Below, in pieces: positions 24,989 to 60,236 of a DNA stretch of 64,000 nucleotides; within the stretch, counting starts at the first letter, position 1; every line of letters starts with the position of its first letter. The notes below the pieces were generated by a model. That model saw only the letters and a list, made by a program, of their open reading frames with translations. It did no database searches and had not been told where the DNA came from. Location of the stretch: assembly GCA_050950165.1 (NCBI GenBank), contig JBMNHC010000001.1, positions 389,738-453,737 of the forward strand, in the 5' to 3' direction. The translations under genes were made by a program, and so were the position numbers. The stretch is from Candidatus Dojkabacteria bacterium (GTDB taxonomy: Bacteria > Patescibacteriota > Dojkabacteria > SC72).

Positions 24989-27900
24989 ATGTTAAAAACT
25001 TACTGCTCGAAAGTAGCAAAATTTGTATTCATTTTGTTGGTACTACCCTTCTTTTTTGCTACTTATAAAGTATATGCACAAACCTCTACAACTGTTAATT
25101 TCCAAGGAAAAATTGTTAGAAATGATACAGGTCATGAAGGATTAAACGTTACAACTGGAAACCCTGCCTGTGTCTTAGCTGGTCAAGACACATGTGATTT
25201 CCAAGTTAAATATTACTCAGCACAGAGTGCGGGAACACTCTATCTAACTGAAACATTTCTAAACAAGGAGATAGGAGATTACGGTGGAGTGTTTAATCTC
25301 TCTTTAGGCTCTGGAACAATGACTCCAGGCATTTACTCTACATTAGACCAAGTCATTAACAACTCTAATTCGGTATACATAGAGATCCTTTTCTCTCCTG
25401 CAGGTAATGAAACATATACAGAAACATTCTCAAGAATGCCACTTCAAGCAGCACCATATGCCATTAGATCTAAATATGCAGGGGTAGCACAAGGAGCATT
25501 TAAGTTTGAAAATGCAGCAAACGCTACTGGATATACAGGAAGTGATGGTATGGTTTACTACGATACTACAGATGGTGTATTGAAACTCTACTCAGGCGGA
25601 ACATGGGTCCCTCTTGCAACAGGCTCAAGTGGAAGTAATATCTGGCAAGGGGCAAGTATCTCATCATTTAGTCACTACCCATCTCAATTCTTAGAGACAA
25701 CAGGTATAGCTACATTAGCTAACTTCGGTGTAGATACAACAGAAAACAGAGCATGGGTACACGGTGCATCATCAAGAACAGGATTTTCAGTTTACTCTAA
25801 CTACAACGGTAGTACAGACTGGCCACTTGTGACATTTAAAGCAGATGCAAGTGGTTTTACTAGCTCAATATTACAATTAATCCAAGATGGAACTGGAAGT
25901 ATCTTAGAAGGATATCAAGGAAGTAACAAAGTATTCGATGTAGACAACAGAGGAGATATGCACCTTTCATCAGACGGTACACTCTATCTAGAACCTTTTA
26001 CATCTCTACCTAGCTCATCAGATCTCTATCCTGCCTCAGGAGAAGGTTGTCTTTACTCTGTGGGTGGAAACATATATTGGGATGGTGCATGTAATGGTAG
26101 TTCTCCAAAGATGCTTAATGCAACTGCTACATCTCTTTGGACAGATGCTGGAACATTTACCTACCTTACCTCTACTTCAGACAACTTAGTTCTTGGTGGT
26201 AGTACAGTAGCTACTGCAAGATTCTTCTTCGATATGACAGCAGCGAGTGGTAGATATTTTAAAGTGGATAATTATAATAACTCGGAGACTCTGTTTACAA
26301 TAGATAGTAGCGGAAATATTGGTATTGGAACTGCAAGTCCTACACACAAATTAGATATTGCAGGTACAAACTCTTCAATAGCTAATGCAACAGGAGATAT
26401 TACGATTACTCCTGCACAGAATTTAATAATTAGTAGTGGAAAAGTTGGGATAGGGACATCTACACCAAGTTCACTTCTTTCGATAGGTTCTTCAAGTCAA
26501 TTCCAGGTAGATGGTAGTGGAGATATTGTAAAGATAAAGGGATTAACTTACTCATGGCCTTCAGCACACACAACAAACGGAGTATTGGTAAATAATGGGA
26601 GTGGTACTCTCTCATGGTCAACAGTATCAGGACTGGGAGGAGTTACTGGTACAGGTAGTAGTGGACAGATAACGTTTTGGAATGGGACTTCAAGTATTAC
26701 AGGAGATAACGGTTTCTGGTGGGATAATACAAACAAGAGACTAGGTATTGGAACGAGTACTCCTCAAGCATCAATAGATATTGCAGGAGCAACATCAGAG
26801 ATATCTAATACGTATGGAAACATTTCAATACTACCATATCAATCACTAGTAGTTACAGGAGGTAGTACAGCTCCTACAGCTATGTGGGTATACAAGACAG
26901 GTAGTGCAACATCAGGAGATATTTTTGGACTTAGAATAGAGACAAACCAGACTGTAGCAGGAGCTCTAACAGTATTTGGAAACAGGATTGTAAATAGGGC
27001 CACTCATACTAGTGGTACATTGGCAGGATTACAAGCTAATAGTACACAGATACAGCTAGAGGGTAATGGTGGTACTACAAACTATGTAGAGGGTCTAACT
27101 TCTAATATAACTGTATCTACAGGAGCAATAGCTTCTAATGTACACCTATTAAGAATATTTTCACCAACTAACTCAGGAACAATTAATCACCTAAAGGGTA
27201 TTCTCATTAACAACATGAATGCAGGTTCTTCTTCTAACTACTCCATATATTCAGAGGGAGGTACTATGTATCATGCGGGTAATGTGGGGATAGGGACTAG
27301 TAGTCCTAGTGGACTTTTGGATGTATCTAATTCTTTTTATACAGGGACAGGAATAATTCTTGTCAGACCTCAGGATAGTAGTAATGAAGGTGGAGAAATA
27401 CGACTACTTGGAGCTGGTTCAAATGCCTCAGTTTTTATAGATAATTATGCAGGTATATTGAGAATTCTCCCATCAAGTGGAACTGTGGCAGTGGAAGTTG
27501 GTGGAACTGTTAATGCTCATAGTGTATTTTGGGGAGGAAGTGGGAGTAGAACAGAAGCAAGAGATGATATAGGGTTAAGAGGTGATGCAGGTGCACGAAG
27601 TGGCTTTTATGAAGCACATAATCCTTCTCCTGCAGCAAACTGGTATCCTGGAGCAACTGGCTGGCAACATTTCATTGATGTAAGACATAGTAATATTACT
27701 AATAACTATGCATTACAGATAGCAGGTTCTTTCTTTAATCAAGAATTATACTTCAGAAAAACAGCAAATAGTCCTACAACAGGATGGAACAAGTTTGTAT
27801 ATGCGGATAGTAATGGTAATGTTAGTATTGCCAATGCTGCCTCTGGTGCGACTCTTACTGTTGGTAGAGCAGCTGGACAGCCAAATATTAAATCATCTAC

Positions 27901-30355: not shown

Positions 30356-30358
30356 TAA

Positions 30359-33148
30359 ATGAAAAAGAAAAAATTTAAGAAAGTACTCATATGTAGCGGG
30401 TACCTTTTTTTAGGTATTTTCTTTTTTGTACTAATCTTTATCTTAATAAACAAAACCCTCAGAAAAGAAAACGAAGATATCATAGGAGTAGCTGATAGTA
30501 ATACATATTTTAGAAATATTAACCCTAAATTTAGTATAGACTTTGTAGATGGAGAATATATTAGATTTGAAAGTGTAGGCTCATATAAAAACCCTTTTGA
30601 AGAGAAAAAAATATCTCTCTTTCAAAAAATAAAACAATATCTCCAATTTAAGAACAAAAGAGAAGGAATTGAGATAAAACTAGAATCAATATCATATGAC
30701 AAAGAAATAGAAGATATTACAGGAAAAGAATTCTTAGAATCAGAATTAAACAGAAGTATAGAACTAATAGATGGTAAAAAAATAATATCTAAAAACATAT
30801 ACAGAGGAATAGATATAGAGTATGAAGTAGTAAAAGGAAAAGGACTTAAAGAAGAAATAGTCCTAAGAGATATCCCAGAGTACAAAACAGTTTGTGAAAA
30901 GAAAGAATGTATATTACCTGCTAACAGATATATCTTTAAAATTACACTAGATGAAGGATTACAACTAAAAAGAAGTATTACTAATCTAAAAGAATACCCA
31001 GCAGGAACATATTATGTAGTAGATAAGAAAGGAAATTACTTCGTACACCTCTTACCAGAATTTGCAGTAGATGCGTTAGGAAATAAAACGAGTAACTTAG
31101 ATATTGTCATCGAACCTTTAGAGAAAAACAATGAATACCTCTATAAATTAACACTAGATGCACAATGGCTACTTAGTAATGAAAGGGCCTTCCCTGTAAG
31201 AATAGACCCCAGTATTGTGCATGACAGCCTGTTAGCTCTAGATTTAGGAACATATGACAGAGTAGCATCGGACCAAACATCAACAGTAAGATTAGATAGT
31301 GCACTTAGCGGAGAATATACCTCTTCAATTTTGGATCTTGGAAGTAATGCATCTCTTGATGATATTAGATGGAGTACTTTTGCTCAAGCAACAGGAGATA
31401 GATATATTCCCTTTTCTCAATTAAGAATCATCTTAGAAGAGAATCTCTCTAATATGGTTGTTGGAAAAGACAAACAAACAAAAACATTTAATATCCCATT
31501 AGAACAAAGCTCTTTCTTTACAATAGAGAGTTGGATATATCAAAGATATGTTGGTGAGTACAACTTAGAAAACATCTTTAGATCTTCTTTGGGTAATATA
31601 GTAGTTAGTGATGGTGTGTACGGTTTCCAAAATACAAATGGAAACATCTTTAAATTTAATATCCCTGTTAAATATAACGCTTGGGTACATCTTGCTGTAA
31701 TATTTGACTTAGAAGATAATCAACTCTCTCTATACATAGATGGTAAGGAAGAAAAAATATCTGTAGACTTTGCAAACAAAACAACCCTAACTCAAGTAAT
31801 CTTAGGAGGTACTAACAGTATCTATGGACATATTGATCTACTAAGAGCATACAGTAGACTACTAACAAGCTACGAAATAATATCTAACTCTCAATATACT
31901 GACCTTTTCCTTACATACAGAGAGAGTGAAAACGGAAAAGAGTGGAGAGATTGGAAGTACAGTTTAATACCAATACTCTCACCAGAGCTAAGAGAGAAAG
32001 AAATATATATCAAGACCGATAACAGTGTGATTAATGATGATACCGTCTTAACTTTTCTCTCTCAATCGGACAAAGCAGAGGAAGTATATATAAGTGGAAG
32101 CCCTATAGAGGCGGGAGTAGAAGATACTAATACTACTCTTTTAGACAAAACAAACAACACCTACACTATGGAAAATATCAAATATCTCGATCTATGGTTT
32201 AGCCCACAACAAAATGAGAACCTCTGCTTACTTAATATATCAAATTCCATTTTAGAAACTAATACAGACGGCAAAATACTACTTAAAACACCAAACAAAA
32301 CCCTCTTCTCCGAAGACTCATATATATTAGGTAAACAAAATCATATAGCAATAAAAGTAGAAAATACTAGATTAATATTCTTTCTCAATGGAAACAGAAC
32401 CAGTATAGAGATACCAAACTACCAATTACCCCCTGAAGGAAGTTATAGCATCTCTCAAAACTGTAGTAGTGGCTTAGGAGAAGCTACTGTAGAAAAAGTT
32501 AGAATATCCTCTGAAGAAAATATAGATGTGTATGAAGTAGCTAATATTGAAAACAGAAAATATATAACTACACCTACATTTAAAGCAACACTATCCAATC
32601 CTCTCTTTGCTGAAAACAAGAATATGTACCTCAAAGAAGAAACTAACTCATCCAACTATGTCCAAAACTTAAATGCAGAAGATATACTTGTGATAGAAGA
32701 AGGAGAGTATAAATTAGAAGGAAAAGTTGTACAAATAGATAAAGCAACAGGATTAGTAGAAGTAGAACAGTGGAGTGGGCAGTTCCCATCAACAGGCTTT
32801 ACTAATCAAGCGAGGATATATAAATGGCAAAGAGAATATATACCAGTAAAAAGATATATAGATAGTGATAGTAGTATCTTTTTGAATAGTAGAGATAATT
32901 TAGTTCTAAAAGACATACAGCTAATATCTTTTCCTAAAGAAGATAACTCTTTACTACCTATGAATAATCTTGAGACAGCATATCTACAATACAAATTTGT
33001 ATTCTTTTCAAAACTCCTAGGCTTAACACCGTATCTTTCTAGTGTTAATATTAACTATACAAACAGTAGGCCTGCGATGGAGCAGATAATGAGACATGGT
33101 AAATGGTTTAGTGATAAAGGAGAAGAGCCCTTCTGGTGGGCTAAATAA
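30359..33148 (+). CDS. Large membrane-anchored protein with a LamG/concanavalin-A-like lectin domain; hypothetical
   Basis: N-terminal TM (VLICSGYLFLGIFFFVLIFIL). A LamG-like segment lies around aa 380-500 (WVHLAVIFDLEDNQLSLYIDGKEE...DLLRAYSRLLTSYEI). The gene starts 3 nt after the stop of the giant upstream gene. Confidence 0.5.
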   Translation: MKKKKFKKVLICSGYLFLGIFFFVLIFILINKTLRKENEDIIGVADSNTYFRNINPKFSIDFVDGEYIRFESVGSYKNPFEEKKISLFQKIKQYLQFKNKREGIEIKLESISYDKEIEDITGKEFLESELNRSIELIDGKKIISKNIYRGIDIEYEVVKGKGLKEEIVLRDIPEYKTVCEKKECILPANRYIFKITLDEGLQLKRSITNLKEYPAGTYYVVDKKGNYFVHLLPEFAVDALGNKTSNLDIVIEPLEKNNEYLYKLTLDAQWLLSNERAFPVRIDPSIVHDSLLALDLGTYDRVASDQTSTVRLDSALSGEYTSSILDLGSNASLDDIRWSTFAQATGDRYIPFSQLRIILEENLSNMVVGKDKQTKTFNIPLEQSSFFTIESWIYQRYVGEYNLENIFRSSLGNIVVSDGVYGFQNTNGNIFKFNIPVKYNAWVHLAVIFDLEDNQLSLYIDGKEEKISVDFANKTTLTQVILGGTNSIYGHIDLLRAYSRLLTSYEIISNSQYTDLFLTYRESENGKEWRDWKYSLIPILSPELREKEIYIKTDNSVINDDTVLTFLSQSDKAEEVYISGSPIEAGVEDTNTTLLDKTNNTYTMENIKYLDLWFSPQQNENLCLLNISNSILETNTDGKILLKTPNKTLFSEDSYILGKQNHIAIKVENTRLIFFLNGNRTSIEIPNYQLPPEGSYSISQNCSSGLGEATVEKVRISSEENIDVYEVANIENRKYITTPTFKATLSNPLFAENKNMYLKEETNSSNYVQNLNAEDILVIEEGEYKLEGKVVQIDKATGLVEVEQWSGQFPSTGFTNQARIYKWQREYIPVKRYIDSDSSIFLNSRDNLVLKDIQLISFPKEDNSLLPMNNLETAYLQYKFVFFSKLLGLTPYLSSVNINYTNSRPAMEQIMRHGKWFSDKGEEPFWWAK

Positions 33149-49752: not shown

Positions 49753-50769
49753 ATGTTAGGAAAGAAATTAGGTATCGATTTAGGTACTGCAAACTCAATA
49801 ATATTTGTTCAAGGTGAAGGTATTGCTTTTGTAGAACCTACTGTTGTTGCCATTGATACTAGTAATTACAAGGTAATAGCGGTAGGCTCCGATGCTAAGA
49901 GAATGATAGGTAAAACTCCAGATAGTATCATTGCAAGAAGACCGATGAGAAATGGTGTAATTGCAGATTCAAGAGTGACTGAGGCACTACTTAAATATTT
50001 TTTGAATAAAGCTTTAGGTAGAGCTAAGTTCTTTAAACCTGATGTGGTAATGAGTGTGCCTGCAGGTATTACAACTGTAGAGCAAAGAGCAGTAATTAAA
50101 GCGGCATCTAATGCAGGAGCAAGGCAAGTGACAATGCTTCCAGAACCTCTTCTGGCTTCTTTAGGTGCAGGATTGCCAATTGAAACATCTTCTGGAAATA
50201 TGATTGTTAACTTAGGGGGAGGTACTGCTGAGATAGCGGTTCTTTCTCTAGATGGTATTGTTGAATATGATTCACTTAGGATAGCGGGTGATGCTATCAA
50301 CGAGGCAATTATCAACTATATGCGTAAGAAAAAGGGAGTATTAATTGGAGAGCAAACAGCAGAGAACATTAAAATTAGAATTGGGTCTGCAATAGAGGTA
50401 AGTAATCCAAGGAGTATGGAGGTAAGGGGTAGGGATGTAGGTGCTGGATTACCTAAGGCAATTAATATTGATTCTAACGATATTGCATATGCAGTAAAGA
50501 GGCCTCTGTTGAGTATAATAAATAGTATAAAAGGGGTATTGGAGAAAACTCCTCCAGAACTTTCTGCTGATATAATGGATAGGGGAATGGTAATGAGTGG
50601 AGGGACTTCTAAGCTTAGGAATTTAGACAAGCTATTTACAAGAGCGATAGGGGTGCCTGCTCATGTTGCAGATGAGCCTATGTATTGCGTTGTGAAGGGA
50701 ACAGGTATAGCATTAGAGTTGATGGCTACAGGAGAGAGGGTGTTTACGTTTAATAAGGGTTTAAATTAA
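49753..50769 (+). CDS. mreB: Rod-shape-determining actin homologue MreB
   Basis: LGIDLGTANS, the phosphate-2 motif and GGGTAEIAV are present, in 338 aa. Confidence 0.9.
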   Translation: MLGKKLGIDLGTANSIIFVQGEGIAFVEPTVVAIDTSNYKVIAVGSDAKRMIGKTPDSIIARRPMRNGVIADSRVTEALLKYFLNKALGRAKFFKPDVVMSVPAGITTVEQRAVIKAASNAGARQVTMLPEPLLASLGAGLPIETSSGNMIVNLGGGTAEIAVLSLDGIVEYDSLRIAGDAINEAIINYMRKKKGVLIGEQTAENIKIRIGSAIEVSNPRSMEVRGRDVGAGLPKAINIDSNDIAYAVKRPLLSIINSIKGVLEKTPPELSADIMDRGMVMSGGTSKLRNLDKLFTRAIGVPAHVADEPMYCVVKGTGIALELMATGERVFTFNKGLN

Positions 50770-50781
50770 AAAAGAGTTTTA

Positions 50782-51948
50782 ATGGTTAATATTTTTTCTA
50801 GACCAAAAAAAACGTCAATGAGATTAGAGGAGGTTACTAAGCAGCTCTCACAGCTTAAGATTCCTCTTAGTTATGTATTTACACCGATTAATCTAAAGGT
50901 AGAGAAAGAGAAGTTTTTACAATCAGATACATATGAACCACAGTTTCAATACAGGGTTGTTAAGAATCATAATGAAGAGATATTAAAAAATCTTTCATCA
51001 CTAAAAGAGATTTCTGATGTAGATCCTAGAATTTCAGATTTTTACATTGAGTTAATTGAATCTAAGAGAGATTCTAGTGATTTAATGCATGCAGTGGGTA
51101 ATAATGATTTGGTATCAGAACTTTCGTACAAGAAATATGGTAAGCCATCTGCACCACTTTTTAGGAATGCTTCTAGGGTTTTGAGAGGTAAGGTAGATTC
51201 TTACAAGCTTGTAGATAGGAAGAGAGTTAAAGGAGAGGATTTATTAAAGTATGATGAGATTAAGGATGCATTTCTTGTTGTATTTAAATCTTTTGGATTA
51301 GATGATTGGAGTGTTGCTAAGTCAGGTAATATAGCGAAGGGTGGTGCTAAGGTAGGTATTAAGAGAAGGGAGGTGTTTTTAGATCCAGATATAGAGAGGA
51401 CAAAATTTAAGCTTAAGAAGACATTGGTTCATGAGGTTGGTACTCATGTATTGAGGGCTGTTAATGGTATGAATAGTGGTTTTGAGGCGCTTTCTAAGCC
51501 TACACTTCCTAGCTATTTAGATGTAGAGGAGGGTTTAGCTGCTTGGAATGAGTCTGAGATGGGTCTTTTAACTCTTCGTTCACTAAAGGAGAAGGCCGCT
51601 CTGTTATGGGCTGTGTATATAGGGGAGAGTCTTACTTTTAGAGAGTTGTATAATAGTTTACTGGGTATATTTCCAAAGTATACTGCTTTCTCTATTACAT
51701 ATAGAGTTAAGCGTGGACTAGGGGATACAAGTTATCATGGTATATTTGCAAAGGATGTTGTTTACTTCAGAGGTTTTAGAAGAGTAAAGAGAAGGTTAGA
51801 GAGAGATAAGTCTTTGTATGAGAAATTGTATGCAGGGAAGATTAATTTTAAACAGTGTGAGTGGGTAGATACTGGACTTATTCCTAAGGCAAAGATTGTT
51901 CCTAACAAAGATATGTGGGTTCGTATATTTAGAGACGCAGGTCTATAA
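50782..51948 (+). CDS. DUF1704/MATCAP-like putative zinc metallopeptidase
   Basis: HExxH motif TLVHEVGTHVLRA and a QEGLA-like motif VEEGLAAWNE, with a size (388 aa) typical of DUF1704 proteins. Confidence 0.5.
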   Translation: MVNIFSRPKKTSMRLEEVTKQLSQLKIPLSYVFTPINLKVEKEKFLQSDTYEPQFQYRVVKNHNEEILKNLSSLKEISDVDPRISDFYIELIESKRDSSDLMHAVGNNDLVSELSYKKYGKPSAPLFRNASRVLRGKVDSYKLVDRKRVKGEDLLKYDEIKDAFLVVFKSFGLDDWSVAKSGNIAKGGAKVGIKRREVFLDPDIERTKFKLKKTLVHEVGTHVLRAVNGMNSGFEALSKPTLPSYLDVEEGLAAWNESEMGLLTLRSLKEKAALLWAVYIGESLTFRELYNSLLGIFPKYTAFSITYRVKRGLGDTSYHGIFAKDVVYFRGFRRVKRRLERDKSLYEKLYAGKINFKQCEWVDTGLIPKAKIVPNKDMWVRIFRDAGL

Positions 51949-52030: not shown

Positions 52031-52342
52031 ATGCCAGAAGGATTCAAAACGGAAGATGTGTTGTCTGTTTATGTAGACAAATTACTTCCAGGTTCTTCAT
52101 ATGAAGGAATTATGCAACTCTTGGAGTTTATGTATGGGGGAGTATTCTCTCAAAAAGATATGAGTTACATAATTCATAAGTGTGGTGTTTCGTTAGCAAA
52201 ACAACACCCTTGGGTAAAGGAAATTAAAGTTCCTGAAAACTATTCAGACACACCCGCCCATCTTTGGATGGAGGATATTGTTAAGAAATATGGCGAGACT
52301 CATTCAGTCGAGCCTTTGAAAAAAGGAGAGATTATAAGTTAA
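52031..52342 (+). CDS. Hypothetical small protein (103 aa)
   Basis: Supplied ORF with a perfect SD (AAGGAGG) 6 nt upstream. Confidence 0.55.
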   Translation: MPEGFKTEDVLSVYVDKLLPGSSYEGIMQLLEFMYGGVFSQKDMSYIIHKCGVSLAKQHPWVKEIKVPENYSDTPAHLWMEDIVKKYGETHSVEPLKKGEIIS

Positions 52343-52349
52343 TAGTGCA

Positions 52350-52409
52350 AGAAGCCTAAGGCATATTTATTGTGTAATACAATTGTTAAAAGTATGTCTT
52401 AGGCCTTCT
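52350..52409. terminator. Long imperfect hairpin between convergent genes (putative bidirectional terminator)
   Basis: agaagcctaaggcata ... tatgtcttaggccttct forms a ~16-bp stem with a 1-nt bulge. Confidence 0.4.
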
Positions 52410-53364
52410 TATTCTTTTTAAAAGCAGTTATTATCTCTTTTGCAATATTATGAGCATTACCACCTGTTTTTTGCTCATACGCTTTAAATCCTGGATGTAA
52501 GCTAATCTCCTGTAGTAATGGCTTCTCATTTAAGTGCATAATATCTACTGCTAAGAAATCTGAATCTAACTTCTGTGCAACTTTGGTTGCTAATTCCAAT
52601 TCCTCCTTAGTAGGATTGTTGTATAGAGAGTATTTCCCTTTGCTTACAGTAATGAAACCTTCCTGTGCTTCTCTTACCCACCCTGTGATAAATTTACTAC
52701 CTTTTAAGAAGAGTCTCATATCCCTTGGTATATCTGCAAATTGCTGTATAAAAAACCTAGAGTGATTTAAATCTTTTAATACCTCTTGTCTTAGATCATC
52801 CTCGTTAGAAAGTTTAAATACATTCTTCTTTATCACCTCTTTACCATTAACACTCTCTAATCTATTAACCCCTGCATACTCTTTCATTATTAAAGGATAT
52901 GTCTCTAAAACATCTCTATGTGCTAGATAGTTTCCATCTGATCTAAAGTATGTATTGAAGTAGGGGATATCATTTAAAAAACAGAATATTGCTAAAGCTA
53001 TCTTGTTGTAGTAGGGAAGTTTTTTAATTGCACGACTATTCTGTACTAGTATATTACTATCCGGATTCTTTAAATTGTGATGATCTATGTAATCGATGAT
53101 GTATCTTTTATAGTGATACTCCATTTCATTATCTAAAGTATGACCTCTGAATATTATATGTGTATATTTCCTAATATCTTCTCTCTTGACCTTAATATTC
53201 ATCTCTCCATCTATGAATTCAAACTCTAACTCATCGTAGTATGCAAGAGAGTTAGGTATATTCTCTTTTGCTAACTCTTCTACTAATCTTAATGAAGCAC
53301 TTGGTATTCCATCCTTATTTCCTGTTTCTACTCTCTGTCTTTTATCTAGTATTAAGTAGTGCAT
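52399..53364 (-). CDS. RimK-like ATP-grasp ligase
   Basis: ATP-grasp C-terminal motifs are present (VDIMHLNEKPLLQEISLHPGF). Confidence 0.6.
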   Translation of the reverse strand: MHYLILDKRQRVETGNKDGIPSASLRLVEELAKENIPNSLAYYDELEFEFIDGEMNIKVKREDIRKYTHIIFRGHTLDNEMEYHYKRYIIDYIDHHNLKNPDSNILVQNSRAIKKLPYYNKIALAIFCFLNDIPYFNTYFRSDGNYLAHRDVLETYPLIMKEYAGVNRLESVNGKEVIKKNVFKLSNEDDLRQEVLKDLNHSRFFIQQFADIPRDMRLFLKGSKFITGWVREAQEGFITVSKGKYSLYNNPTKEELELATKVAQKLDSDFLAVDIMHLNEKPLLQEISLHPGFKAYEQKTGGNAHNIAKEIITAFKKNKKA

Positions 53365-53366
53365 AT

Positions 53367-55061
53367 TTATATTATTTTAATTTTATTTATTAACCTCATT
53401 CGTTTATACCCTTTCAATATCTGCATAAATTCTCTGTTTTTAGAGTTCTCTTTAGTAATGTAGAGAGTATGAATATGATCAAAACCTAAACCATGTTCAG
53501 AAACTTCTGACCAATCTCTGTAATGTAAAATGATTACATCTAGTGAGGCGTTACACTTAATTGCATCTAAAAGATTCTCTCTATCTACACCTTCATTAAT
53601 TAATAGTCTGTTAATGTAATATTTATCTCCAATTATCTCTCCTACAGACTCATGTTCTTGAATAACTCTTTTCTTTCTTAAAATTGTAGATATATCATCT
53701 CTGCTCTGTCCAATTAGTACATATTTTTTACAACTGTTTTGTTCTAGTAGAGCATCAATGAATTTCTCTGCTACATATTCTCTCTGCTTACCTTGAGTAG
53801 GGAAGAGATTAAGATATGCCTCTGGCATCATATTTATCTCTAATATTGCTCCATTTTCTTTAGTAAGAGGTTTAGAGATATCTTTACAAAGTATATCTAT
53901 ACCTAGTGCGAATATATGTAGGGATTGTGCAATACTTTCAACTATTAACCTAATCTCTTCTCCAACACTATCTGTAAAATCTTCTGTAGTTCCTCCTTGG
54001 CTCATACTAGCAATATTTCTTACAAATATCTGTTCATCTTTTTTAGGTATACTTTCTAGTGTAAGGTTCTTACTCTCTAGTAGGTTTATAAGGGGCTCAT
54101 CTATAACTATCGGTTTTAATATATGGGATGGATTAGTTATATCTCTTCTTGGATCTCTATTTGTTTCTTCTATTAATTCTTTGATAGTTTGTTTGCCATC
54201 TCCTACAATAAATGCAGGTACTCTCTTTGTAGCTATCTCTAACTTACCGTTGATTACAAGAAGTCTGTAATCTTCTCCTTGGACTTGTTCTTGCATCATT
54301 ATTTTAGCTTGCCATGAAGCTCTTACCTTACTATCTATTACCTTTTTTGCTATTGAGAATGCTCTCTTTGCTTCCTCTACAGTATTTATATTCACAGTCA
54401 CGCCCTTCCCACCAGTAAGACCAGTGGGTTTTATAACTACTGGCTTAGAGTAATCCTTGAAATTTTTATCTATATCCTTTTCACTCTCTAATATCTCCCA
54501 TTTTAGAGATGGTAGACCTAATCTCTCTATGAAAAGATTACTAGACCACTTGTCTTTCTGTATCTTATGAGCAAAATATGAATCTTTACTAGATACAATG
54601 GAAGCAGTAATATGGGAACCTTTCCCACATCCTAATGTATAGTATCTATTAAATACTCCTACATATCCTTTCTCTATTCCTTCTATTACTTCTTTACCGT
54701 GTATTGTAGGAGTTATTTCTAAATTTCTTCTCTGTGCAGCTTCAAGTATAGATATTGAAGACATGGATTTAACTCTTCTAGCAATTATTGTGTCATTGAT
54801 AAAGTCGAAAGCTTCTTTGTAGGTAATCTCTCTGTTATTAAGTTTCTGAATATATTCCTCTGCTTCTTTCCATATACTTAGAAGTTTAGATTTGATAGTG
54901 AGTTGAGCAGGAGAGAGAAGGTACTCTGTAATGAAGATGGGGTGGTATGATGCGATATGGTCTAGTAGTTTGGTAATATCTGAGAGATTATCTCCATCTA
55001 AAGGTATCTTGATAGTAGTAAATTGAGATTCTAGATTGATTCCGTGTAGTATTTTAGCCAT
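53367..55061 (-). CDS. Cyanophycin-synthetase-like ATP-grasp ligase: CphA-like N-domain plus G-domain, no Mur-ligase domain
   Basis: PVVIKPTGLTGGKGV, YRLLVINGKLEIATKRVPAFIVGDGKQTIKELIE and NRDPRRD resemble the CphA ATP-grasp module. A ~200-aa N-domain precedes it and an unknown ~150-aa tail follows. Confidence 0.55.
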   Translation of the reverse strand: MAKILHGINLESQFTTIKIPLDGDNLSDITKLLDHIASYHPIFITEYLLSPAQLTIKSKLLSIWKEAEEYIQKLNNREITYKEAFDFINDTIIARRVKSMSSISILEAAQRRNLEITPTIHGKEVIEGIEKGYVGVFNRYYTLGCGKGSHITASIVSSKDSYFAHKIQKDKWSSNLFIERLGLPSLKWEILESEKDIDKNFKDYSKPVVIKPTGLTGGKGVTVNINTVEEAKRAFSIAKKVIDSKVRASWQAKIMMQEQVQGEDYRLLVINGKLEIATKRVPAFIVGDGKQTIKELIEETNRDPRRDITNPSHILKPIVIDEPLINLLESKNLTLESIPKKDEQIFVRNIASMSQGGTTEDFTDSVGEEIRLIVESIAQSLHIFALGIDILCKDISKPLTKENGAILEINMMPEAYLNLFPTQGKQREYVAEKFIDALLEQNSCKKYVLIGQSRDDISTILRKKRVIQEHESVGEIIGDKYYINRLLINEGVDRENLLDAIKCNASLDVIILHYRDWSEVSEHGLGFDHIHTLYITKENSKNREFMQILKGYKRMRLINKIKII

Positions 55062-55077
55062 GTCTTTGTAGAAAAAA

Positions 55078-56055
55078 TTATATAGTTTTAATAATATATT
55101 CTAGTATAGGGATAGCTACTTTAACAGATTCTCCTTGATCTACTTTGTAGTGTAGTCTTAATCCTGGATTGTAGTTGATTTCATTTACTCCGCATTTACT
55201 AGGCTTAGTTATATCTTTAGCTATGATATCTACTCCTCCAAATTTAGCCCCTATAGCTTTTACTGCAGCAATGGCGATATCTTTATAGTAAGGGTGCACT
55301 AGAGTAGAGCACTCTTGTGTAGTACCTCCTGTAGTTAGATTACAGTTATACCTAAGTATTACCTCTTGATTATTATTAGGTATGGAGGATAGCTTTAGTC
55401 CTAACTCTGTTAGTCTAAGTTTAACTTCATTATCTATACTGATAGGTAGAAGCAAATTGGCCTTTCTCTCTCTATTTCTCTGTTCTATTAATTTCTTAAT
55501 ACTATCTTTTCCATTTCCCACTACAGAAGGAGCTTTCCTTTTTACTATACCTACAACTCTATCTCCTACAACTAGGAATCTATAGTTTTCGCCCTTTAGA
55601 AACTCTTCACCTAGTACCTTGTCTTGATCTTTTGTTTTAGATTTTCTATATGCCTCCTTATATGCCCTTACTACCTCTCTTCTGTTGTGAGGAAGTATAC
55701 TAACACCACTTCCACCTAACTGTTGAGATGGTTTAATTACTATATGCCTATACTTATTAAAAAAATCCAAAGCATCCTGCTTACTTCTTAGTACTACCTG
55801 TTTAGGAATAGGTATATTGGTAGAAGAGAGTACAGCATTAGTTAAATGTTTTCTTTTAGCAATTGTAGTACTAGTTGTATTGGTAAGTGGAGTTGCTGTA
55901 TTAATGATGAACCAATGTTTACCTTTATACTCAAATCTAGCCATTAGTGCATACTTTACTATCTCATATTTAATACCCAATATATCTGCAGCCTCAATGT
56001 AGTAAGCAAGATGTACATTACCTGCAATTTTTAGATATTCACTATATCTCTTCAT
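55078..56055 (-). CDS. Cyanophycin-synthetase-like ATP-grasp ligase (paralogue of 53367..55061)
   Basis: HIVIKPSQQLGGSGV and YRFLVVGDRVVGIVKRKAPSVVGNGKDSIKKLIE match the same CphA-like ATP-grasp pattern. Confidence 0.55.
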   Translation of the reverse strand: MKRYSEYLKIAGNVHLAYYIEAADILGIKYEIVKYALMARFEYKGKHWFIINTATPLTNTTSTTIAKRKHLTNAVLSSTNIPIPKQVVLRSKQDALDFFNKYRHIVIKPSQQLGGSGVSILPHNRREVVRAYKEAYRKSKTKDQDKVLGEEFLKGENYRFLVVGDRVVGIVKRKAPSVVGNGKDSIKKLIEQRNRERKANLLLPISIDNEVKLRLTELGLKLSSIPNNNQEVILRYNCNLTTGGTTQECSTLVHPYYKDIAIAAVKAIGAKFGGVDIIAKDITKPSKCGVNEINYNPGLRLHYKVDQGESVKVAIPILEYIIKTI

Positions 56056-56073
56056 ATATTGTTAAGTAAAATA

Positions 56074-57549
56074 TTAGAAAGTACCACTTGTATCTATTAG
56101 GTATCCTGAAAGATCAGACCTGCCAATTATTACAGGTTGAGGTATATCTTGTATATCTATAGAGATGAACTCGGTTATTCGTATTGTATCTGACATCTTT
56201 ATTACTATCTCAAATACAGGTCTAACCTTTATCTCTCCGTTCTCTACTATCTTTGCTAACCTCTTAATATCTTCATTCTTAGTAATCTCTTTCTCATGTT
56301 TATCTATATATTCCTGAGCATCTTTAAAGCTCTCAAACTTAGATGGAATATTAAATTTATTAAACTCCTTTGTTGCATTTAGATATCCAATACGGTTTGC
56401 AAGAGCAGAAGAGATTCTAGAAGTAAGAGTTCCTGTATCCATAAAAGCATTTACTATCTCTCTCTTTACATCCTTTCTCTTCTTTATCTTCTCTACATCT
56501 ACCCCTTTGTTGTATATTGAGATTTTTTCAGTAATATTTAAAACCTTTCTACCACTAATAGCTTCGATACTCTCTTCGATTTCACCTCCAAAAAGATTCT
56601 TTGATACCCTGATACCGTGTTTAATACTCTTAATCTTTAAATCTTGTACCTTTTCTAATCTCCATCTAAGTCCAGCTTGGTTAGCAACTTGAATACCCAG
56701 TCCTGGTCTAGCATTTATTTCGAATACAACAGGTCCTTTCTCTGCATCTATTGCAATATCCACCCCTATATATCCTAATTTACTAAATTTTTGACACTTA
56801 AGTGCAATCTCTAACATCTCATTCCAGTATGGTATCTGAATACCTTTTAGAGATTTGTTCTCTTGTAAATCTATTGTAGAGTCTATTAGTTTGTAAGTAT
56901 CTGTTCTAAATGCAGAAGCTGGCATATGCATAGAGTAGGTAGTAATTCCAGACTCCATATCTATACCTGTACATATTGCTCCAGAGTGTAAGTTTGCAGT
57001 ACCGTTAGACTTTTTAGTAGGAAGTCTTAGCATAGCCATAACAGGGACCTGATTAAAACAGATGATTCTAATATCTGGTACACCCTTGTATGAATACTGC
57101 TTAAGTAGGGGATCTGTTTTAATTCTCTCCTCTATTATCGCAATATCATTTTTATTACTCATGGAGAATCTTCCATCTAAGATATTCTCTATATGTAATA
57201 TGATGTCTTTTTTAGTCATAGTAGAACCATTTGGTCGTATCCAAGCCTCTTCTCCTTTTTTCTTACCAAAGAATATTACAATACCATTACCACCTGTTCC
57301 CTTGTTCGGTTTAATTACAAAACTTTTAGGTAAACTATCCCAGTCTAAGGATTTTAACTGTCGTTTAGTTCTAATTAACTTGTATACCTCTGGTGTTTGA
57401 ATTAGTTCTTTTTTAAGAACTCTCTTTGTTATTATCTTGTTGTCAGCTACAGCCTTAGCAGAAGGAGAGTTGTATCTCCTAATATATTCCTGGTTTCTTC
57501 TATTCAATCCAAGTATATGTTTATACTTCCTATTAATTAGAGATATCAT
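56074..57549 (-). CDS. Alpha-L-glutamate-ligase-like (sugar-transfer-associated) ATP-grasp fused to a C-terminal retropepsin-like DUF785 domain
   Basis: FVIKPNKGTGGNGI and VVFEINARPGL are ATP-grasp_ST-like. The C-terminal AFMDTGTLTSRIS carries a D-T-G-T retropepsin-type motif. Confidence 0.55.
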   Translation of the reverse strand: MISLINRKYKHILGLNRRNQEYIRRYNSPSAKAVADNKIITKRVLKKELIQTPEVYKLIRTKRQLKSLDWDSLPKSFVIKPNKGTGGNGIVIFFGKKKGEEAWIRPNGSTMTKKDIILHIENILDGRFSMSNKNDIAIIEERIKTDPLLKQYSYKGVPDIRIICFNQVPVMAMLRLPTKKSNGTANLHSGAICTGIDMESGITTYSMHMPASAFRTDTYKLIDSTIDLQENKSLKGIQIPYWNEMLEIALKCQKFSKLGYIGVDIAIDAEKGPVVFEINARPGLGIQVANQAGLRWRLEKVQDLKIKSIKHGIRVSKNLFGGEIEESIEAISGRKVLNITEKISIYNKGVDVEKIKKRKDVKREIVNAFMDTGTLTSRISSALANRIGYLNATKEFNKFNIPSKFESFKDAQEYIDKHEKEITKNEDIKRLAKIVENGEIKVRPVFEIVIKMSDTIRITEFISIDIQDIPQPVIIGRSDLSGYLIDTSGTF

Positions 57550-58198
57550 CTTTGTTTGAGATAGAAAATCTAAAGTAATCTTTTAATCTTAAACCTGTAA
57601 ACTGACCCAAAAGAATATTAAATATTGTTAAGAGAGGCAATATCCAAAGATTGTTTAAGAGATATCCCGACACTATCTCTCTAGTTATTACAAACCAACC
57701 TACAGTAGCAACTAGTATAGTTCCAAAAAGTGTAAGTAGAGATCCCTTAAATGATTTCTTTAGGTATTGTTTGATAAAGAAATCAGAAAGTGCAGCTATG
57801 GAGATAAATGCTAGAGGAGGTATATTTACCATATTGTCTAAACCTAGATTAAATCTATCAACTACAATAAAGAGAAGAAGTAGTACCATTGCTAGAATGG
57901 TATAGTTTGTTGCTATACGAGTAATGTAGTGCATTCTAATTTTACTTAATATTGAAAAAGAAAATATTGAAGTAAGAATTACTACCGAAGTTATAACTAA
58001 TCCATACTTTAATCCTGTATATGAGTAGGCTATAGCTAAGATAATTGGTGCATATATTCCGTATGTTTTAGAATCAAATATATATCTAGCTATACCAACT
58101 ATAGTGGCTAACACACATACCGCTATTAAAAGCTCTAGTACTTTTTCAGATACTCCGTTTTGTAATAACCACTCAGTTAATCTTGATGTTTCAAACAT
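57533..58198 (-). CDS. Polytopic (7TM-type) membrane protein partner of the ATP-grasp_ST ligase
   Basis: About six or seven hydrophobic helices. The stop overlaps the downstream ATP-grasp gene by 17 nt. The supplied ORF starts at a TTG (58213); the ATG at 58198 (MFETSRL) is the more likely start. Confidence 0.5.
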   Translation of the reverse strand: MFETSRLTEWLLQNGVSEKVLELLIAVCVLATIVGIARYIFDSKTYGIYAPIILAIAYSYTGLKYGLVITSVVILTSIFSFSILSKIRMHYITRIATNYTILAMVLLLLFIVVDRFNLGLDNMVNIPPLAFISIAALSDFFIKQYLKKSFKGSLLTLFGTILVATVGWFVITREIVSGYLLNNLWILPLLTIFNILLGQFTGLRLKDYFRFSISNKDDISN

Positions 58199-58348
58199 AT
58201 CTTTGGAATTCAAAAATTAGAACAGTTTCTAATATAATTATACTTTGTATCTATATATATTGTCGAATGTATAGAGTAATATATATTAATTATTAAAAAT
58301 TATATAAAAATGCAACTAAGAGTTTACACAAAACAACTGTAAGTTGGT

Positions 58349-58358
58349 GGTTGCAACC
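58349..58358. promoter_or_regulatory. Perfect 10-bp palindrome GGTTGCAACC in the divergent intergenic region (candidate operator)
   Basis: Directly visible, 48 nt upstream of the XRE-HTH gene. A second 6-4-6 palindrome TTAGAAcagtTTCTAA at 58217-58232 abuts a TATAAT. Confidence 0.4.
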
Positions 58359-58405: not shown

Positions 58406-59764
58406 ATGAGCTTTAGAAAAAACCTAGAGTATTTAAGGAAGAAAGCAAAACTCTCGCAAGAAGATTTAGCTTTCAAACTTGGTGTCTCAAGACAAGCTGT
58501 ATCTAAGTGGGAATCAGGTGCTGCATATCCTGAAACAGAAAAAATCATTACAATCTGTTCCCTCTTTGATTGTAACTTAGATGAGCTAATTAAAGAAGAT
58601 ATCTCTGAGTTAAGAAATGAAGAGACAAAGAGATATACATTTAATGATCTAGTTCATGCTATAGAAGATCTTGTTAAGAGAACATCTGAGATGTTTAGTA
58701 ATATGAGTATTAAGTCTGCTTTTAGATTTCTTTTTGAGTTAGGTATTTTAATCATCCTAATTTTAATGTTAAGAATTCCTTTTGAATATATTACGAATTT
58801 AGGAAATGGAATATTCTTTGCGATAGGGGGGACAGTAGGCAAGATATCTTTAGCCTTATGGAGATTTGTTATCGAGGTAGTGTATTTAATAAGTGCTGTA
58901 GTATCATTTGTATATATATACAAGATTAGATTTTTGGATAAGGTAGACTCTATTATCCCAGTAGAGAAAGATAAGAAAGAAGAGATTAAAAAGGAGGTTA
59001 AGGTAGTAAAGTATGATTTCGGAATTCTCTCTTTGTTAGGTAAGATGATACTTTTTTCTATTAAAGTATTCCTTCTTTTCTTTTCTGCTTTAATAGTTTT
59101 TTTGATGTTTATCTCTATTGTTTGTTTAGTAGTTGTAATATCTTGGATGTTTAGTAAGGTCTTTATCTTTAGTGCAATATTATTTTGTCTTACAGCTCTA
59201 CTATTAGCTGTACTTTTACTTTACGTTATTTACAACTTTATACTAAATAGAAGGAGTAAGTGGGAGAAGGTCTTTATATTTCTCTTAGTATCTATACTAG
59301 GGTTTGGTGTTAGTGTTGGAGTAGGGTTTTTGGAGATGAAAGAGTATACATTTACTACTAAGCAACAGGGATTTCTTGTCGAGGATAGAAAGGTGGAGAG
59401 TTTTAATATGCAAGATGATTTAATTTCGGCAGTAAACTATATATGGGGAGGTGATATACAATATGTAGAGGATGAGAAACTATCAGACAGTGTTGAAGTT
59501 ACAGCTATTTACTATGGAGATTTTGTAAAAAGAGAAGATGTTCGTATCGAGAAAGTAAATGGTAATCAAATTATCGCAACAGTAGATAGAATGGAAATTC
59601 CTCTATCTCCAGTATACAGAGTATTTTTAAGGGGTCTTAGGGATAAGGTTGTATATGTGGATTATCATAATCTTTTTGATATTCAGAGGATAGAGATACG
59701 ATCAAGTAAGGGGAATATAAAGAAGTTGGAGAAGAATTTTATAGATTTTAGGAACAATCTGTAA
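58406..59764 (+). CDS. Membrane-anchored XRE-family (Cro/C1-type) HTH transcriptional regulator with polytopic TM region and extracytoplasmic C-terminal domain
   Basis: The N-terminal HTH_3 segment is LSQEDLAFKLGVSRQAVSKWESG. At least four TM helices follow, then a ~150-aa C-terminal domain. Confidence 0.65.
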   Translation: MSFRKNLEYLRKKAKLSQEDLAFKLGVSRQAVSKWESGAAYPETEKIITICSLFDCNLDELIKEDISELRNEETKRYTFNDLVHAIEDLVKRTSEMFSNMSIKSAFRFLFELGILIILILMLRIPFEYITNLGNGIFFAIGGTVGKISLALWRFVIEVVYLISAVVSFVYIYKIRFLDKVDSIIPVEKDKKEEIKKEVKVVKYDFGILSLLGKMILFSIKVFLLFFSALIVFLMFISIVCLVVVISWMFSKVFIFSAILFCLTALLLAVLLLYVIYNFILNRRSKWEKVFIFLLVSILGFGVSVGVGFLEMKEYTFTTKQQGFLVEDRKVESFNMQDDLISAVNYIWGGDIQYVEDEKLSDSVEVTAIYYGDFVKREDVRIEKVNGNQIIATVDRMEIPLSPVYRVFLRGLRDKVVYVDYHNLFDIQRIEIRSSKGNIKKLEKNFIDFRNNL

Positions 59765-59782
59765 GTCATATTTAAAACAGAA

Positions 59783-59803
59783 AGACCACCTTTAAGGTGG
59801 TCT
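59783..59803. terminator. Bidirectional rho-independent terminator between the XRE gene (+) and rplL (-)
   Basis: AGACCACC-tttaa-GGTGGTCT, with T-rich runs on both sides. Confidence 0.65.
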
Positions 59804-59828
59804 TGTTCTAATAGCTTTAGTAAATATT

Positions 59829-60236
59829 TTACTCTAGCTCTACTGTTGCACCAGCTTCTTCAAATTTTGCTTTGAATTCTTCTGCTTCCTCTTTCTTTAC
59901 AGCTTCTTTAACTGTTTGAGGTGCACTATCTACAAGATCTTTAGCCTCTTTAAGACCTAACTCTGTAATCTCTCTTACAACTTTGATTACACCGATCTTG
60001 TTTGCTCCTGCATCCTTAAGAACAATGTTGAAGGAAGTTTTCTCTTCCTCTGCAGGTGCTGCCTCTGCTGGAGCTGCTGCTGCTACTGCAACAGGTGCTG
60101 CTGCACTTACTCCAAACTTATCCTCCATTACTTTAACAAGGTCTGCTAGTTCTAAAACGGTCATCTTCTCAACCATTTCTACAACTTTCTGAGCATTTGC
60201 TGTTAATGTAGGAAGTGTTTTTGCTTCGTCTGCCAT
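59829..60236 (-). CDS. rplL: 50S ribosomal protein L7/L12
   Basis: An Ala-rich hinge ([21 protein letters not shown]) and a conserved C-terminal domain. Confidence 0.9.

Follow-up and report, generated by a model that had tools for sequence, protein, structure and literature searches.

The window analysed here is a 64,000-nucleotide stretch of contig JBMNHC010000001.1 (assembly GCA_050950165.1, positions 389,738 to 453,737 of the forward strand) from a Candidatus Dojkabacteria bacterium. It carries a conserved cluster of five genes, designated G1–G5, which encode four ATP-grasp ligases and a seven-transmembrane (7TM) protein and are accompanied by a convergent gene for a predicted metallocarboxypeptidase of the MATCAP/DUF1704 family. 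We propose, with a probability of roughly 0.55, that these genes form a membrane-coupled "write and trim" system that is spread across the candidate phyla radiation (CPR) and is related to the RloABC and RimK–RimB systems. The core trio of 7TM protein, ATP-grasp ligase, and retropepsin-like peptidase is already known as RloABC; the features that appear to be new are its CPR version, the added ligases, and the MATCAP-family peptidase. The anatomy and the distribution of the cluster are solid, whereas its function is what we infer from sequence.

Gene Order and Conservation of the Cluster

G1–G5 are consecutive open reading frames (ORFs) on the minus strand that together span positions 52399–58213 (Table 1), with gaps of 2, 16, and 18 nt and an overlap of 17 nt between G5 and G4. 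The GC content of this region (32–34%) is like that of the remaining window. The claims of an initial annotation, made from the sequence alone, were tested with ORF calls, Pfam- and TIGRFAM-type family models, structure-sequence profiles, synteny, and phmmer searches. Its central observation, a five-gene cluster of four ATP-grasp ligases (one RimK-like, two CphA-like, and one alpha-L-glutamate-ligase-like) with a 7TM partner, was confirmed by the family searches. In the NCBI annotation, G2 and G3 are both labeled "hypothetical protein." A hydropathy scan found neither hydrophobic segments nor signal peptides in any of the four ligases or in the two peptidases, i.e., the retropepsin-like domain of G4 and the MATCAP-like protein.

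The gene-order survey that the initial annotation had recommended was performed on 35 GTDB species representatives of Dojkabacteria, in which G4 is 62–86% identical to its counterpart in the window; the genome of the window makes 36. The order rplJ–rplL, 7TM (G5), ligase–retropepsin (G4), 325-residue and 564-residue CphA-like ligases (G3 and G2), RimK-like ligase (G1), followed in the opposite orientation by the MATCAP and MreB genes, is common to the 35 representatives without a single departure. The loci of 23 genomes are complete, and the remaining ones are cut by contig ends. The clustering, with the same gene order in all 35 representatives, is far beyond chance. It is also retained in two divergent clades, where G4 is about 50% identical; in one of them a glycosyltransferase gene is located between those of MATCAP and MreB.

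The 7TM Protein and the Ligase–Retropepsin Fusion

G5 belongs to the 7TM_transglut family (PF14402, 60.9 bits against a cut-off of 25) and has 6–7 membrane segments in the hydropathy scan. Its overlap with the ligase gene, pointed out in the initial annotation, is the 17 nt given above, and the two genes are predicted to be translationally coupled. The protein resembles only the C-terminal 7TM part of RloB (NF052267, positions 315–504 of 508; 33 bits against a cut-off of 900). With the match confined to this part, the RloB-type transglutaminase domain is absent, and no soluble or extracellular domain was found in G5.

The N-terminal part of G4 is an ATPgrasp_ST domain (hereafter ST; PF14397, 237.7 bits, 1.9e-70, cut-off 31.4). 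The TIGR02291 score (288.4 bits) is just below the equivalog cut-off of 314.2, so that G4 should be considered a member of the RloC-type family rather than a strict equivalog. Residues K80, D264, E277, and N279 are invariant in 43 homologs. In an AlphaFold2 model built from these homologs (predicted local distance difference test score, pLDDT, 88.8), the ligase part comes closest, among solved folds, to CphA1, ArgX/LysX, RimK with RpsF, and Ddl, which supplies for G4 the structure comparison that had been suggested.

The C-terminal domain of G4 carries the DTGT motif at residues 371–374 (D in 33/34, T in 34/34, and G in 31/34 orthologs). A profile of this domain and its CPR homologs, with the consensus AKIDTGA...RP...DRxxLxYPxIIGRxDL, matches the RloA structures 9G58 (2.6e-10) and 9G59 (1e-8) as well as 2PMA and the Ddi1 retropepsins, and PF05618 is reached by G4 orthologs from sister Dojkabacteria clades. 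The fusion of an ST ligase to a DTGT-bearing retropepsin-like domain, as originally described, is thus borne out by PF14397 and by the match to the RloA structures. RloA and RimB cleave poly-Glu, RloA requiring at least eight Glu residues, and the basic residues of RloA that coordinate poly-Glu are K46, R92, R114, and R137 (Lormand et al., 2025; bioRxiv 10.1101/2025.03.18.643919). The equivalent of R114 in G4 is the invariant R443.

The CphA-Like and RimK-Like Ligases

In cyanophycin synthetase CphA1, R309, R323, N394, G456, and R458 serve in catalysis and aspartate binding, E215 contacts the arginine side chain of the cyanophycin primer, and the G domain extends the C-terminal carboxylate (PMC9427784). 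In CphA2, the M domain is truncated and inactive, a putative beta-Asp-Arg site consists of D362, R389, N393, and S395, and D212 contacts the primer (PMC10273328).

Cyanophycin synthetase models are matched by G2 at 2e-71 and by G3 at 3e-63 (NF010623, 3.4e-63), and the two proteins are 31% identical to each other (5e-31), in agreement with the initial view of them as paralogous CphA-like ligases. Both are far from the TIGR02068 family cut-off of 850 bits, with 240.9 bits for G2 and 210.9 for G3. After CphA, they are closest to the C-terminal ligase of GshAB (4e-52) and to N-acetylglutaminylglutamine synthetase (4e-39). G3 matches TeCphA1 (7WAC) at 3e-33, and GshAB is matched as well.

The two proteins differ in architecture. 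G3 consists of the G domain only, without an M domain. The profile of G2 orthologs matches CphA1 (7LG5) at 9e-62 over residues 191–577 and CphA2 (8FXH) at 3e-59 over residues 189–577. Residues 446–564 of G2 correspond in the alignment to the initial ~90 residues of the CphA M domain, and the P-loop GTNGKTT is replaced there by GQSRDDI. The first 140 residues have no family match, and profile searches detected in them no similarity to the CphA N domain. By combining a G domain with a truncated M stub that has lost its P-loop, G2 resembles CphA2. The earlier statement that both ligases lack the Mur-ligase domain therefore holds in full for G3 and only in the functional sense for G2, which keeps this stub.

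Equivalences to CphA1 were established from the TeCphA1 residues (PMC9427784), HMMER alignments, and ortholog columns. In G3, the counterparts of R309, R323, N394, G456, R458, and the Mg ligands are invariant in 33/33 orthologs; the counterpart of E215 is an invariant T, and that of H267 is G. In G2, R309, R323, and the Mg ligands are likewise invariant, N394, G456, and R458 are replaced by S, E, and Y in 29/29 orthologs, and E215 is mostly K. Of the CphA2 site, as read from the profile alignment, D362, R389, and S395 are kept in G2 as D321, R348, and S354, and N393 is replaced by S352. The equivalent of CphA2 D212 was taken to be K166, on the assumption, made independently of the alignment, that D212 is the counterpart of CphA1 E215. 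Judged by these residues, G3 has a complete Asp-type pocket and that of G2 is remodelled, and the two ligases appear not to be equivalent. The catalytic residues of G2, G3, and G4 all appear intact.

G1 is a divergent ATP-grasp protein of the RimK/LysX/MptN family, and its initial identification as RimK-like was upheld by the Pfam RimK domain (38.4 bits against a cut-off of 21). It matches MptN over the full length at 2e-8 and RimK structures at 4e-6, and its TIGR00768 score is 41 bits against a cut-off of 143.4. Residues D274 and E286 are invariant. The E-x-N Mg motif reads E-I-S in 27/28 orthologs, and since this conserved E-x-S replaces the canonical metal site, catalysis by G1 may be altered.

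A Predicted MATCAP-Family Carboxypeptidase as the Sixth Member

The gene convergent with G1–G5 encodes a predicted metallocarboxypeptidase of the MATCAP/DUF1704 family (PF08014, 98.6 bits; cut-off 27). In the match to human MATCAP (7Z5G; 8e-12), the HEVGTH motif of the encoded protein, an HExxH sequence that is invariant among orthologs, is aligned with HEIGTH. The TIGR02421 (QEGLA) score of 120.6 bits is below the cut-off of 338.65, and hence the protein is not an equivalog of proteobacterial QEGLA. In eukaryotes, MATCAP/TMCP enzymes cleave off C-terminal Tyr and Glu and make poly-Glu chains shorter (PMC10499314).

The gene is convergent on G1 in all 23 complete Dojkabacteria loci. Moreover, among the best 150 G4 matches in a set of 50%-identity cluster representatives, there are approximately 45 fusions of ST with MATCAP, approximately 34 of ST with retropepsin, and 7 of 7TM with ST. 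Many ST–MATCAP fusions keep a retropepsin segment between both domains; in one protein (P0129) ST, retropepsin, and MATCAP are all joined, and in another (P0164) ST and retropepsin are followed by a second ATP-grasp domain. Another Dojkabacteria lineage (L043) has the order rplL, 7TM, ST–MATCAP, and two CphA-like ligases, with MreB convergent. Comparison of this locus with the window indicates that MATCAP and retropepsin are interchangeable at the fusion position, which argues that both would act on the product of the ligase. In view of the invariant synteny and the gene fusions, we consider the MATCAP-like protein to be a sixth member of the module, which the initial annotation had missed.

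The MATCAP-like gene follows mreB after 12 nt on the same strand, an arrangement shared by nearly all Dojkabacteria loci. Many relatives have a second, ~44% identical MreB paralog 7–8 kb upstream of the cluster. One homolog (P0127) combines ATPgrasp_ST and retropepsin with a YdjC-like domain of a carbohydrate deacetylase family, which hints at a sugar-linked substrate in some lineages.

Related Clusters in Other CPR Lineages

The named fusion homologs come from Gracilibacteria, Moranbacteria, Andersenbacteria, Microgenomates, and unclassified Patescibacteria. The gene contexts outside Dojkabacteria include a 7TM protein with PKD domains followed by ST–MATCAP; 7TM followed by ST–retropepsin, a RimK-like ligase, a glycosyltransferase, and the penicillin-binding protein PBP1A; and ST–MATCAP followed by RimK. 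In a complete CPR genome (L045; OZ246411.1, 843,892 bp), the PKD-containing 7TM protein is followed by ST–MATCAP, a RimK-like ligase, and three CphA/Ddl-like ligases; the four extra ATP-grasp genes (L045:11352–15760) bring the number of ligase domains in this operon to five.

A metagenome scan yielded 80 further loci, which we annotated with our own ORF and phmmer pipeline; the set of queries behind their labels was small, and some of the ORFs could be split by alternative genetic codes. They represent another locus type, typically yebC–ruvC, the cluster, and PBP1A(–ruvA), with flanks as in the named CPR loci and the usual ruv neighbourhood split by the cluster. Neither rplL nor MreB was found nearby in any of the 80. 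The 7TM gene is located directly upstream of the ST ligase in 63 of the 65 loci with enough upstream sequence. Among the 25 ST–retropepsin loci with at least 4 kb of downstream sequence, contiguous extra ATP-grasp genes of the RimK-like or CphA-like type number at least one in 16, at least two in 14, and at least three in 9. The ST–MATCAP loci mostly lack extra ligases (0/18), the exceptions being L040, L043, L045, L053, and L065.

A class A penicillin-binding protein (PBP) is encoded within 8 kb in 18/25 metagenomic ST–retropepsin loci and is also nearby in 6/6 non-Dojkabacteria loci from the protein look-up (L039–L042, L044, and L045). In L039, L042, L044, L045, and many of the metagenomic loci (L046–L125), the 7TM_transglut protein has N-terminal PKD domains and not an inactive transglutaminase. 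The class A PBP neighbours in such CPR loci often carry PKD/Big_7 domains too.

By these comparisons, the cluster of the window appears to be the Dojkabacteria form of a CPR-wide cluster family. The initial annotation had regarded its arrangement as undescribed. This holds for the CPR version, as no published account of it, of ligase–MATCAP fusions, or of CphA-like add-ons was found in the searched literature; it does not hold in the sense of a one-off arrangement, given the breadth of the family in CPR.

Flanking Genes and the Intergenic Region

In this lineage, the rplJ–rplL genes are not followed by rpoB/rpoC. A strong terminator-like hairpin, in the window that of rplL itself, comes next, and then the ligase cluster or, in this genome, a gene for an XRE-type helix-turn-helix (HTH) protein (Table 1), which has a ~390-residue region with transmembrane (TM) segments and a C-terminal domain of unknown family. 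The initial annotation took this gene for a divergent membrane-anchored regulator. The HTH_3 domain, the TM segments, and the divergent orientation are all real, but the gene is not a conserved part of the module. It is located between rplL and the 7TM gene in 3/36 genomes, namely, that of the window, L016 (50% identity), and L033 (43%); in genomes without it, rplL and the 7TM gene are direct neighbours on the same strand, rplL coming first. For this lack of conservation the HTH protein was rejected as the regulator of the system.

The intergenic region between G5 and the HTH gene is 81% AT, and 35% of Markov shuffles reach its longest inverted-repeat stem. The two palindromes noticed there initially are no better than those of shuffled sequence and were discarded, both as operators and as a part of the module. 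At the other end of the cluster, none of the 35 related Dojkabacteria loci has a counterpart of the 103-residue ORF between the MATCAP gene and G1, and a search of the gene-position collection for its exact sequence gave no match. Lacking a counterpart in any relative, this ORF seems to be a local and recent insertion.

Elsewhere in the window, two adjacent ORFs encode a 1788-residue protein, whose Peptidase_S74 intramolecular-chaperone domain is of the kind found in phage tail-spike or endosialidase-like proteins, and a 929-residue protein with Laminin_G_3; both probably belong to the cell surface or serve in host interaction. A further large protein, of 1012 residues and likewise putatively located at the surface, contains four DUF285 (Mycoplasma-type) repeats (3.8e-128).

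Table 1. Cluster genes, domains, and further features in the 64,000-nucleotide window (window positions).
Feature	Position	Strand	Description
Putative surface protein	6264–9302	-	DUF285 repeats
Two adjacent ORFs	24989–33148	+	Peptidase_S74 and Laminin_G_3; probably surface or host-interaction proteins
mreB	49753–51948 (with the MATCAP gene)	+	
MATCAP/DUF1704 (QEGLA-family) gene	50782–51948	+	Predicted gluzincin metallocarboxypeptidase; convergent with G1–G5, 12 nt 3' of mreB
103-aa ORF	52031–52342	+	Between MATCAP and G1; AAGGAGG ribosome-binding site, TG-extended promoter-like site; phrog_15963 (4e-10), phage family of unknown function
G1	52399–53364	-	321 aa, RimK-like
G2	53367–55061	-	564 aa, CphA2-like ligase
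G2 regions	aa 1–140; aa ~141–445; aa 446–564		N-terminal region; G domain; P-loop-less truncated M-domain stub
G3	55078–56055	-	325 aa, CphA G-domain-like ligase
G4	56074–57549	-	491 aa, ATPgrasp_ST ligase and retropepsin
G4, C-terminal domain	56077–56547	-	Retropepsin-like (DUF785/RimB/RloA family) aspartic peptidase, ~160 aa, fused to the ligase, cytoplasmic
G4, N-terminal domain	56644–57501	-	ATPgrasp_ST/RloC-like (alpha-L-glutamate-ligase-like), PF14397
G5	57533–58213	-	226 aa from TTG; probably 221 aa from ATG at 58198
Promoter-like site 5' of G5	58237–58266	-	Predicted; TCGACA-18-TATAAT, 11/12 matches, best consensus match in a 10.9-kb scan
XRE-type HTH_3 protein	58406–59764	+	HTH_3 3.6e-15; ~4–5 TM segments; divergent from G5
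rplJ–rplL	59782–60236 (region with the hairpin)	-	
Terminator-like hairpin of rplL	59804–59782		

Functional Interpretation

ATP-grasp ligases activate a carboxylate as an acyl-phosphate, to which an amine is then added, and RimK extends C-terminal carboxylates. In the system that we propose, the ligases would activate a terminal carboxylate in this manner and add amino acids singly, so that a short heteropeptide or poly-amino-acid chain, probably an acidic one, would arise on the cytoplasmic side of the membrane. The retropepsin as an endopeptidase and the MATCAP-like protein as a carboxypeptidase would limit or reverse the growth of the chain, as RimB does for RimK and as the MATCAP and CCP deglutamylases do for TTL/TTLL. 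The 7TM partner would dock the ligase and either hand the product to the cell envelope or couple its synthesis to the envelope status, and the extra CphA-like ligases of Dojkabacteria would diversify the chain beyond poly-Glu.

The initial annotation suggested multi-step peptide synthesis on an envelope substrate. The multi-step part fits the recurrent addition of 1–4 extra ATP-grasp genes to the same core in CPR, and the envelope part is suggested by the membrane partner, by the adjacent MreB in Dojkabacteria, and by the class A PBP in other CPR loci. The nearly constant presence of a 7TM partner, the PKD or transglutaminase domains that its relatives carry outside the cell, and the MreB and PBP1A neighbourhoods together favour an envelope-directed product. 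Going further, one may tentatively imagine that modular ATP-grasp ligases assembled on the 7TM protein build a genome-specific, envelope-destined non-ribosomal peptide, i.e., a wall polymer or a modification of peptidoglycan or of the PBP machinery, whose length is edited by the fused retropepsin and the MATCAP-type carboxypeptidase; the ligase–MATCAP fusions would then be a prokaryotic counterpart, and possibly the source, of the writer/eraser logic of tubulin tails. We offer this extended scenario as a speculation that we consider unlikely.

Several observations speak against the proposed system or restrict it. The residue equivalences come from HMMER pairwise alignments and not from structures. 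In the retropepsin of the window's clade, the equivalent of RloA K46 is F or Y and that of R137 is absent (R137 is present in most other CPR homologs), and a domain without two of the four poly-Glu-binding basic residues makes a poly-Glu product uncertain; taken together with the remodelled pocket of G2, this suggests that the product is not plain poly-Glu. G1 may be an altered or non-catalytic member of its family. Both peptidases of the CPR version are cytoplasmic, unlike the secreted RloA, which weakens the argument for export, and an exported product is not required. A search for a conserved acidic C-terminal acceptor motif in the 7TM protein, MreB, the ligases, and L7/L12 found none; the Phe at the C-terminus of G4 is part of a motif of the retropepsin fold and is not always terminal. 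Finally, the adjacency to PBP or MreB might reflect inherited synteny and not a functional link.

In an alternative reading, the ligases tail the C-terminus of a specific protein, either a ribosomal one, as RimK does with S6, or MreB, with the peptidases serving as erasers and the 7TM protein as a sensor or regulator instead of an exporter. The four ligases and the peptidases indeed have no signal peptides or TM segments, the folds nearest to the ST domain include the protein C-terminus modifiers RimK–RpsF and LysX/ArgX, the Dojkabacteria cluster directly follows rplJ–rplL, the MATCAP gene lies next to mreB, and eukaryotic MATCAP is a cytoskeletal tail-trimming enzyme. We nevertheless consider protein tailing unlikely, as the adjacency to rplL and MreB is confined to Dojkabacteria and is not seen in the 80 metagenomic loci, which sit between ruvC and a class A PBP; MreB, L7/L12, and the 7TM protein all lack a conserved acidic C-terminus; and the consistent 7TM pairing (63/65) and the 7TM–ligase fusions are hard to square with a purely soluble target. 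A small-molecule peptide, such as a glutathione-like thiol, an osmolyte similar to N-acetylglutaminylglutamine amide (NAGGN), or another compatible solute, with the 7TM protein as its channel or exporter and the peptidases for its turnover, is a still less probable product. The similarity of G2 and G3 to GshAB and N-acetylglutaminylglutamine synthetase, second only to CphA, is in its favour, as is the connection of Rlo with hypo-osmotic tolerance. In the part of the Photobacterium damselae transcriptome report that concerns low salinity, a QEGLA/MATCAP-family gene is induced 27-fold and rimK 52-fold, and a GshB-like gene with the locus tag adjacent to the former is also among those induced (PMC10308900); this fits an osmotic role for the proteobacterial ligase/MATCAP pairs. 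This report and the Rlo paper were the only relevant items in the searched literature on a CPR version, bacterial MATCAP with ATP-grasp, QEGLA, PF14397, and TIGR02291. Di- and tripeptides would, however, be poor substrates for the peptidases, given the length requirement of RloA and the binding of extended peptides by retropepsins; the cluster contains no GshA-like or GNAT partner; and the variable number of ligases (1–5) across CPR loci agrees better with a variable chain composition than with a single metabolite.

Synthesis of cyanophycin or of some close analogue by G2 and G3, to serve as a nitrogen reserve, is very improbable. Among named proteins, both match CphA1 and CphA2 best, G2 has a CphA2-like combination of G and truncated M domains, and G3 keeps all Asp-binding residues, but the family scores are far below the cut-off, and there is no active Mur-like domain for the addition of Arg. 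At the position that contacts Arg (E215 in CphA1, D212 in CphA2), G3 has T and G2 mostly K, and G2 has other residues in place of N394, G456, and R458. No cyanophycinase was noticed among the nearby genes, and the fixed linkage to the 7TM, ST, retropepsin, and MATCAP genes is not a cyanophycin context. True cyanophycin synthesis was thus rejected on the basis of architecture and pocket residues. A mobile defence or toxin module controlled by the adjacent XRE repressor is scarcely credible: the divergent XRE-type gene and the gene of a phage family (phrog_15963) at the other end of the cluster might evoke it, but these two are precisely the variable parts, and the locus itself is fixed and housekeeping in all Dojkabacteria. 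None of the six module proteins has a PADLOC match, on which ground the defence reading was dismissed.

We therefore return to the membrane-coupled "write and trim" system. The six-gene module occupies ~7 kb of the 724.5-kb contig, about 1% of the DNA. Its retention in every complete Dojkabacteria locus despite a minimal genome of ~0.72 Mb, and the presence of related modules in several CPR lineages, indicate that the product is likely to be important for the envelope- and host-cell-dependent biology of CPR. The cluster can be regarded as a natural experiment for the still unexplained Rlo system and as a case of CphA-type G domains used outside cyanophycin synthesis. The routine pairing and fusion of bacterial MATCAP-family carboxypeptidases with ATP-grasp ligases makes the origin of ligase/carboxypeptidase tail-editing cycles testable, and the enzymes, being small and soluble, are suited to in vitro reconstitution.

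Comparison With Known Systems

In PgsBCA, an ATP-dependent amide ligase and polytopic membrane partners make and export an anionic poly-amino acid, poly-gamma-glutamate; PgsB is a ligase of the Mur type and not of the ATP-grasp type. The common feature of a ligase with membrane partners is an analogy only, as the 7TM protein of the window has no homology to this system. With CphA1 and CphA2, G2 and G3 share the G-domain fold, the catalytic Arg residues, and the Mg ligands; in addition, G3 keeps the Asp-binding triad, and G2 has the truncated, inactive M domain of CphA2. They differ by the lack of an Arg-adding M domain and of detected N-domain similarity, by a non-conserved residue at the contact with the Arg side chain, by the remodelled nucleophile pocket of G2, and by being stand-alone proteins encoded in an operon with unrelated ligases and peptidases.

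The eukaryotic tubulin tail cycle, in which TTL/TTLL enzymes are opposed by MATCAP/TMCP and CCP, likewise pairs an ATP-grasp ligase with a MATCAP-family HExxH carboxypeptidase, and in many CPR proteins the two are fused. What MATCAP enzymes cleave off at the C-terminus is Tyr/Phe and Glu. Unlike TTL, the bacterial ligase belongs to the RloC/RimK type; the system is coupled to a membrane protein, and no tubulin-like target is evident, the neighbour MreB being an actin homolog. The RimK–RimB system, responsible for poly-alpha-L-glutamylation of ribosomal protein S6 and its trimming, also combines an ATP-grasp ligase and a retropepsin-like peptidase that are both cytoplasmic; in structure and sequence, G1 and the ST domain come nearest to RimK/LysX, and the Dojkabacteria cluster adjoins ribosomal protein genes. 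On the other hand, the ligases of the window reach at most 68 bits with TIGR00768 (cut-off 143), and the system has an obligate 7TM partner and several ligases.

A system of a 7TM protein that carries a transglutaminase domain of the inactive kind, an ATP-grasp ligase, and a DUF785 peptidase, the same as RloABC, was reportedly predicted by Iyer et al. in 2009. The trio of 7TM, ATPgrasp_ST, and retropepsin, whose 7TM–ligase pairing the initial annotation correctly placed with such predicted peptide-modification systems, has now been studied genetically as RloABC of Pseudomonas aeruginosa/fluorescens, where Rlo affects osmotic (hypo-osmotic) tolerance, cell shape, biofilm formation, and beta-lactam sensitivity, and where the rloA1-3 triple mutant is relieved of its defects when rloB or rloC is lost (Lormand et al., 2025). 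This suppression implies that in Pseudomonas the material removed by the protease is produced by the pair of ligase and membrane protein.

The cluster of the window lacks two features that define RloABC, namely, the transglutaminase domain and a protease that is secreted. RloB has a transglutaminase-like periplasmic domain and RloA is secreted by means of an N-terminal signal peptide, whereas the 7TM protein of the window has no such domain and its retropepsin is ligase-fused, cytoplasmic, and devoid of the two basic residues discussed above. The window further adds three ATP-grasp ligases and a MATCAP-type carboxypeptidase, and its host belongs to CPR, RloB being reported as 96% proteobacterial. 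What the two systems share is the PF14402 7TM protein, the ATP-grasp ligase of the PF14397/TIGR02291 type, the DUF785 retropepsin with its DTG motif, the adjacency of the 7TM and ligase genes, and, as we propose, the same logic, in which a peptidase counteracts a pair of ligase and membrane protein.

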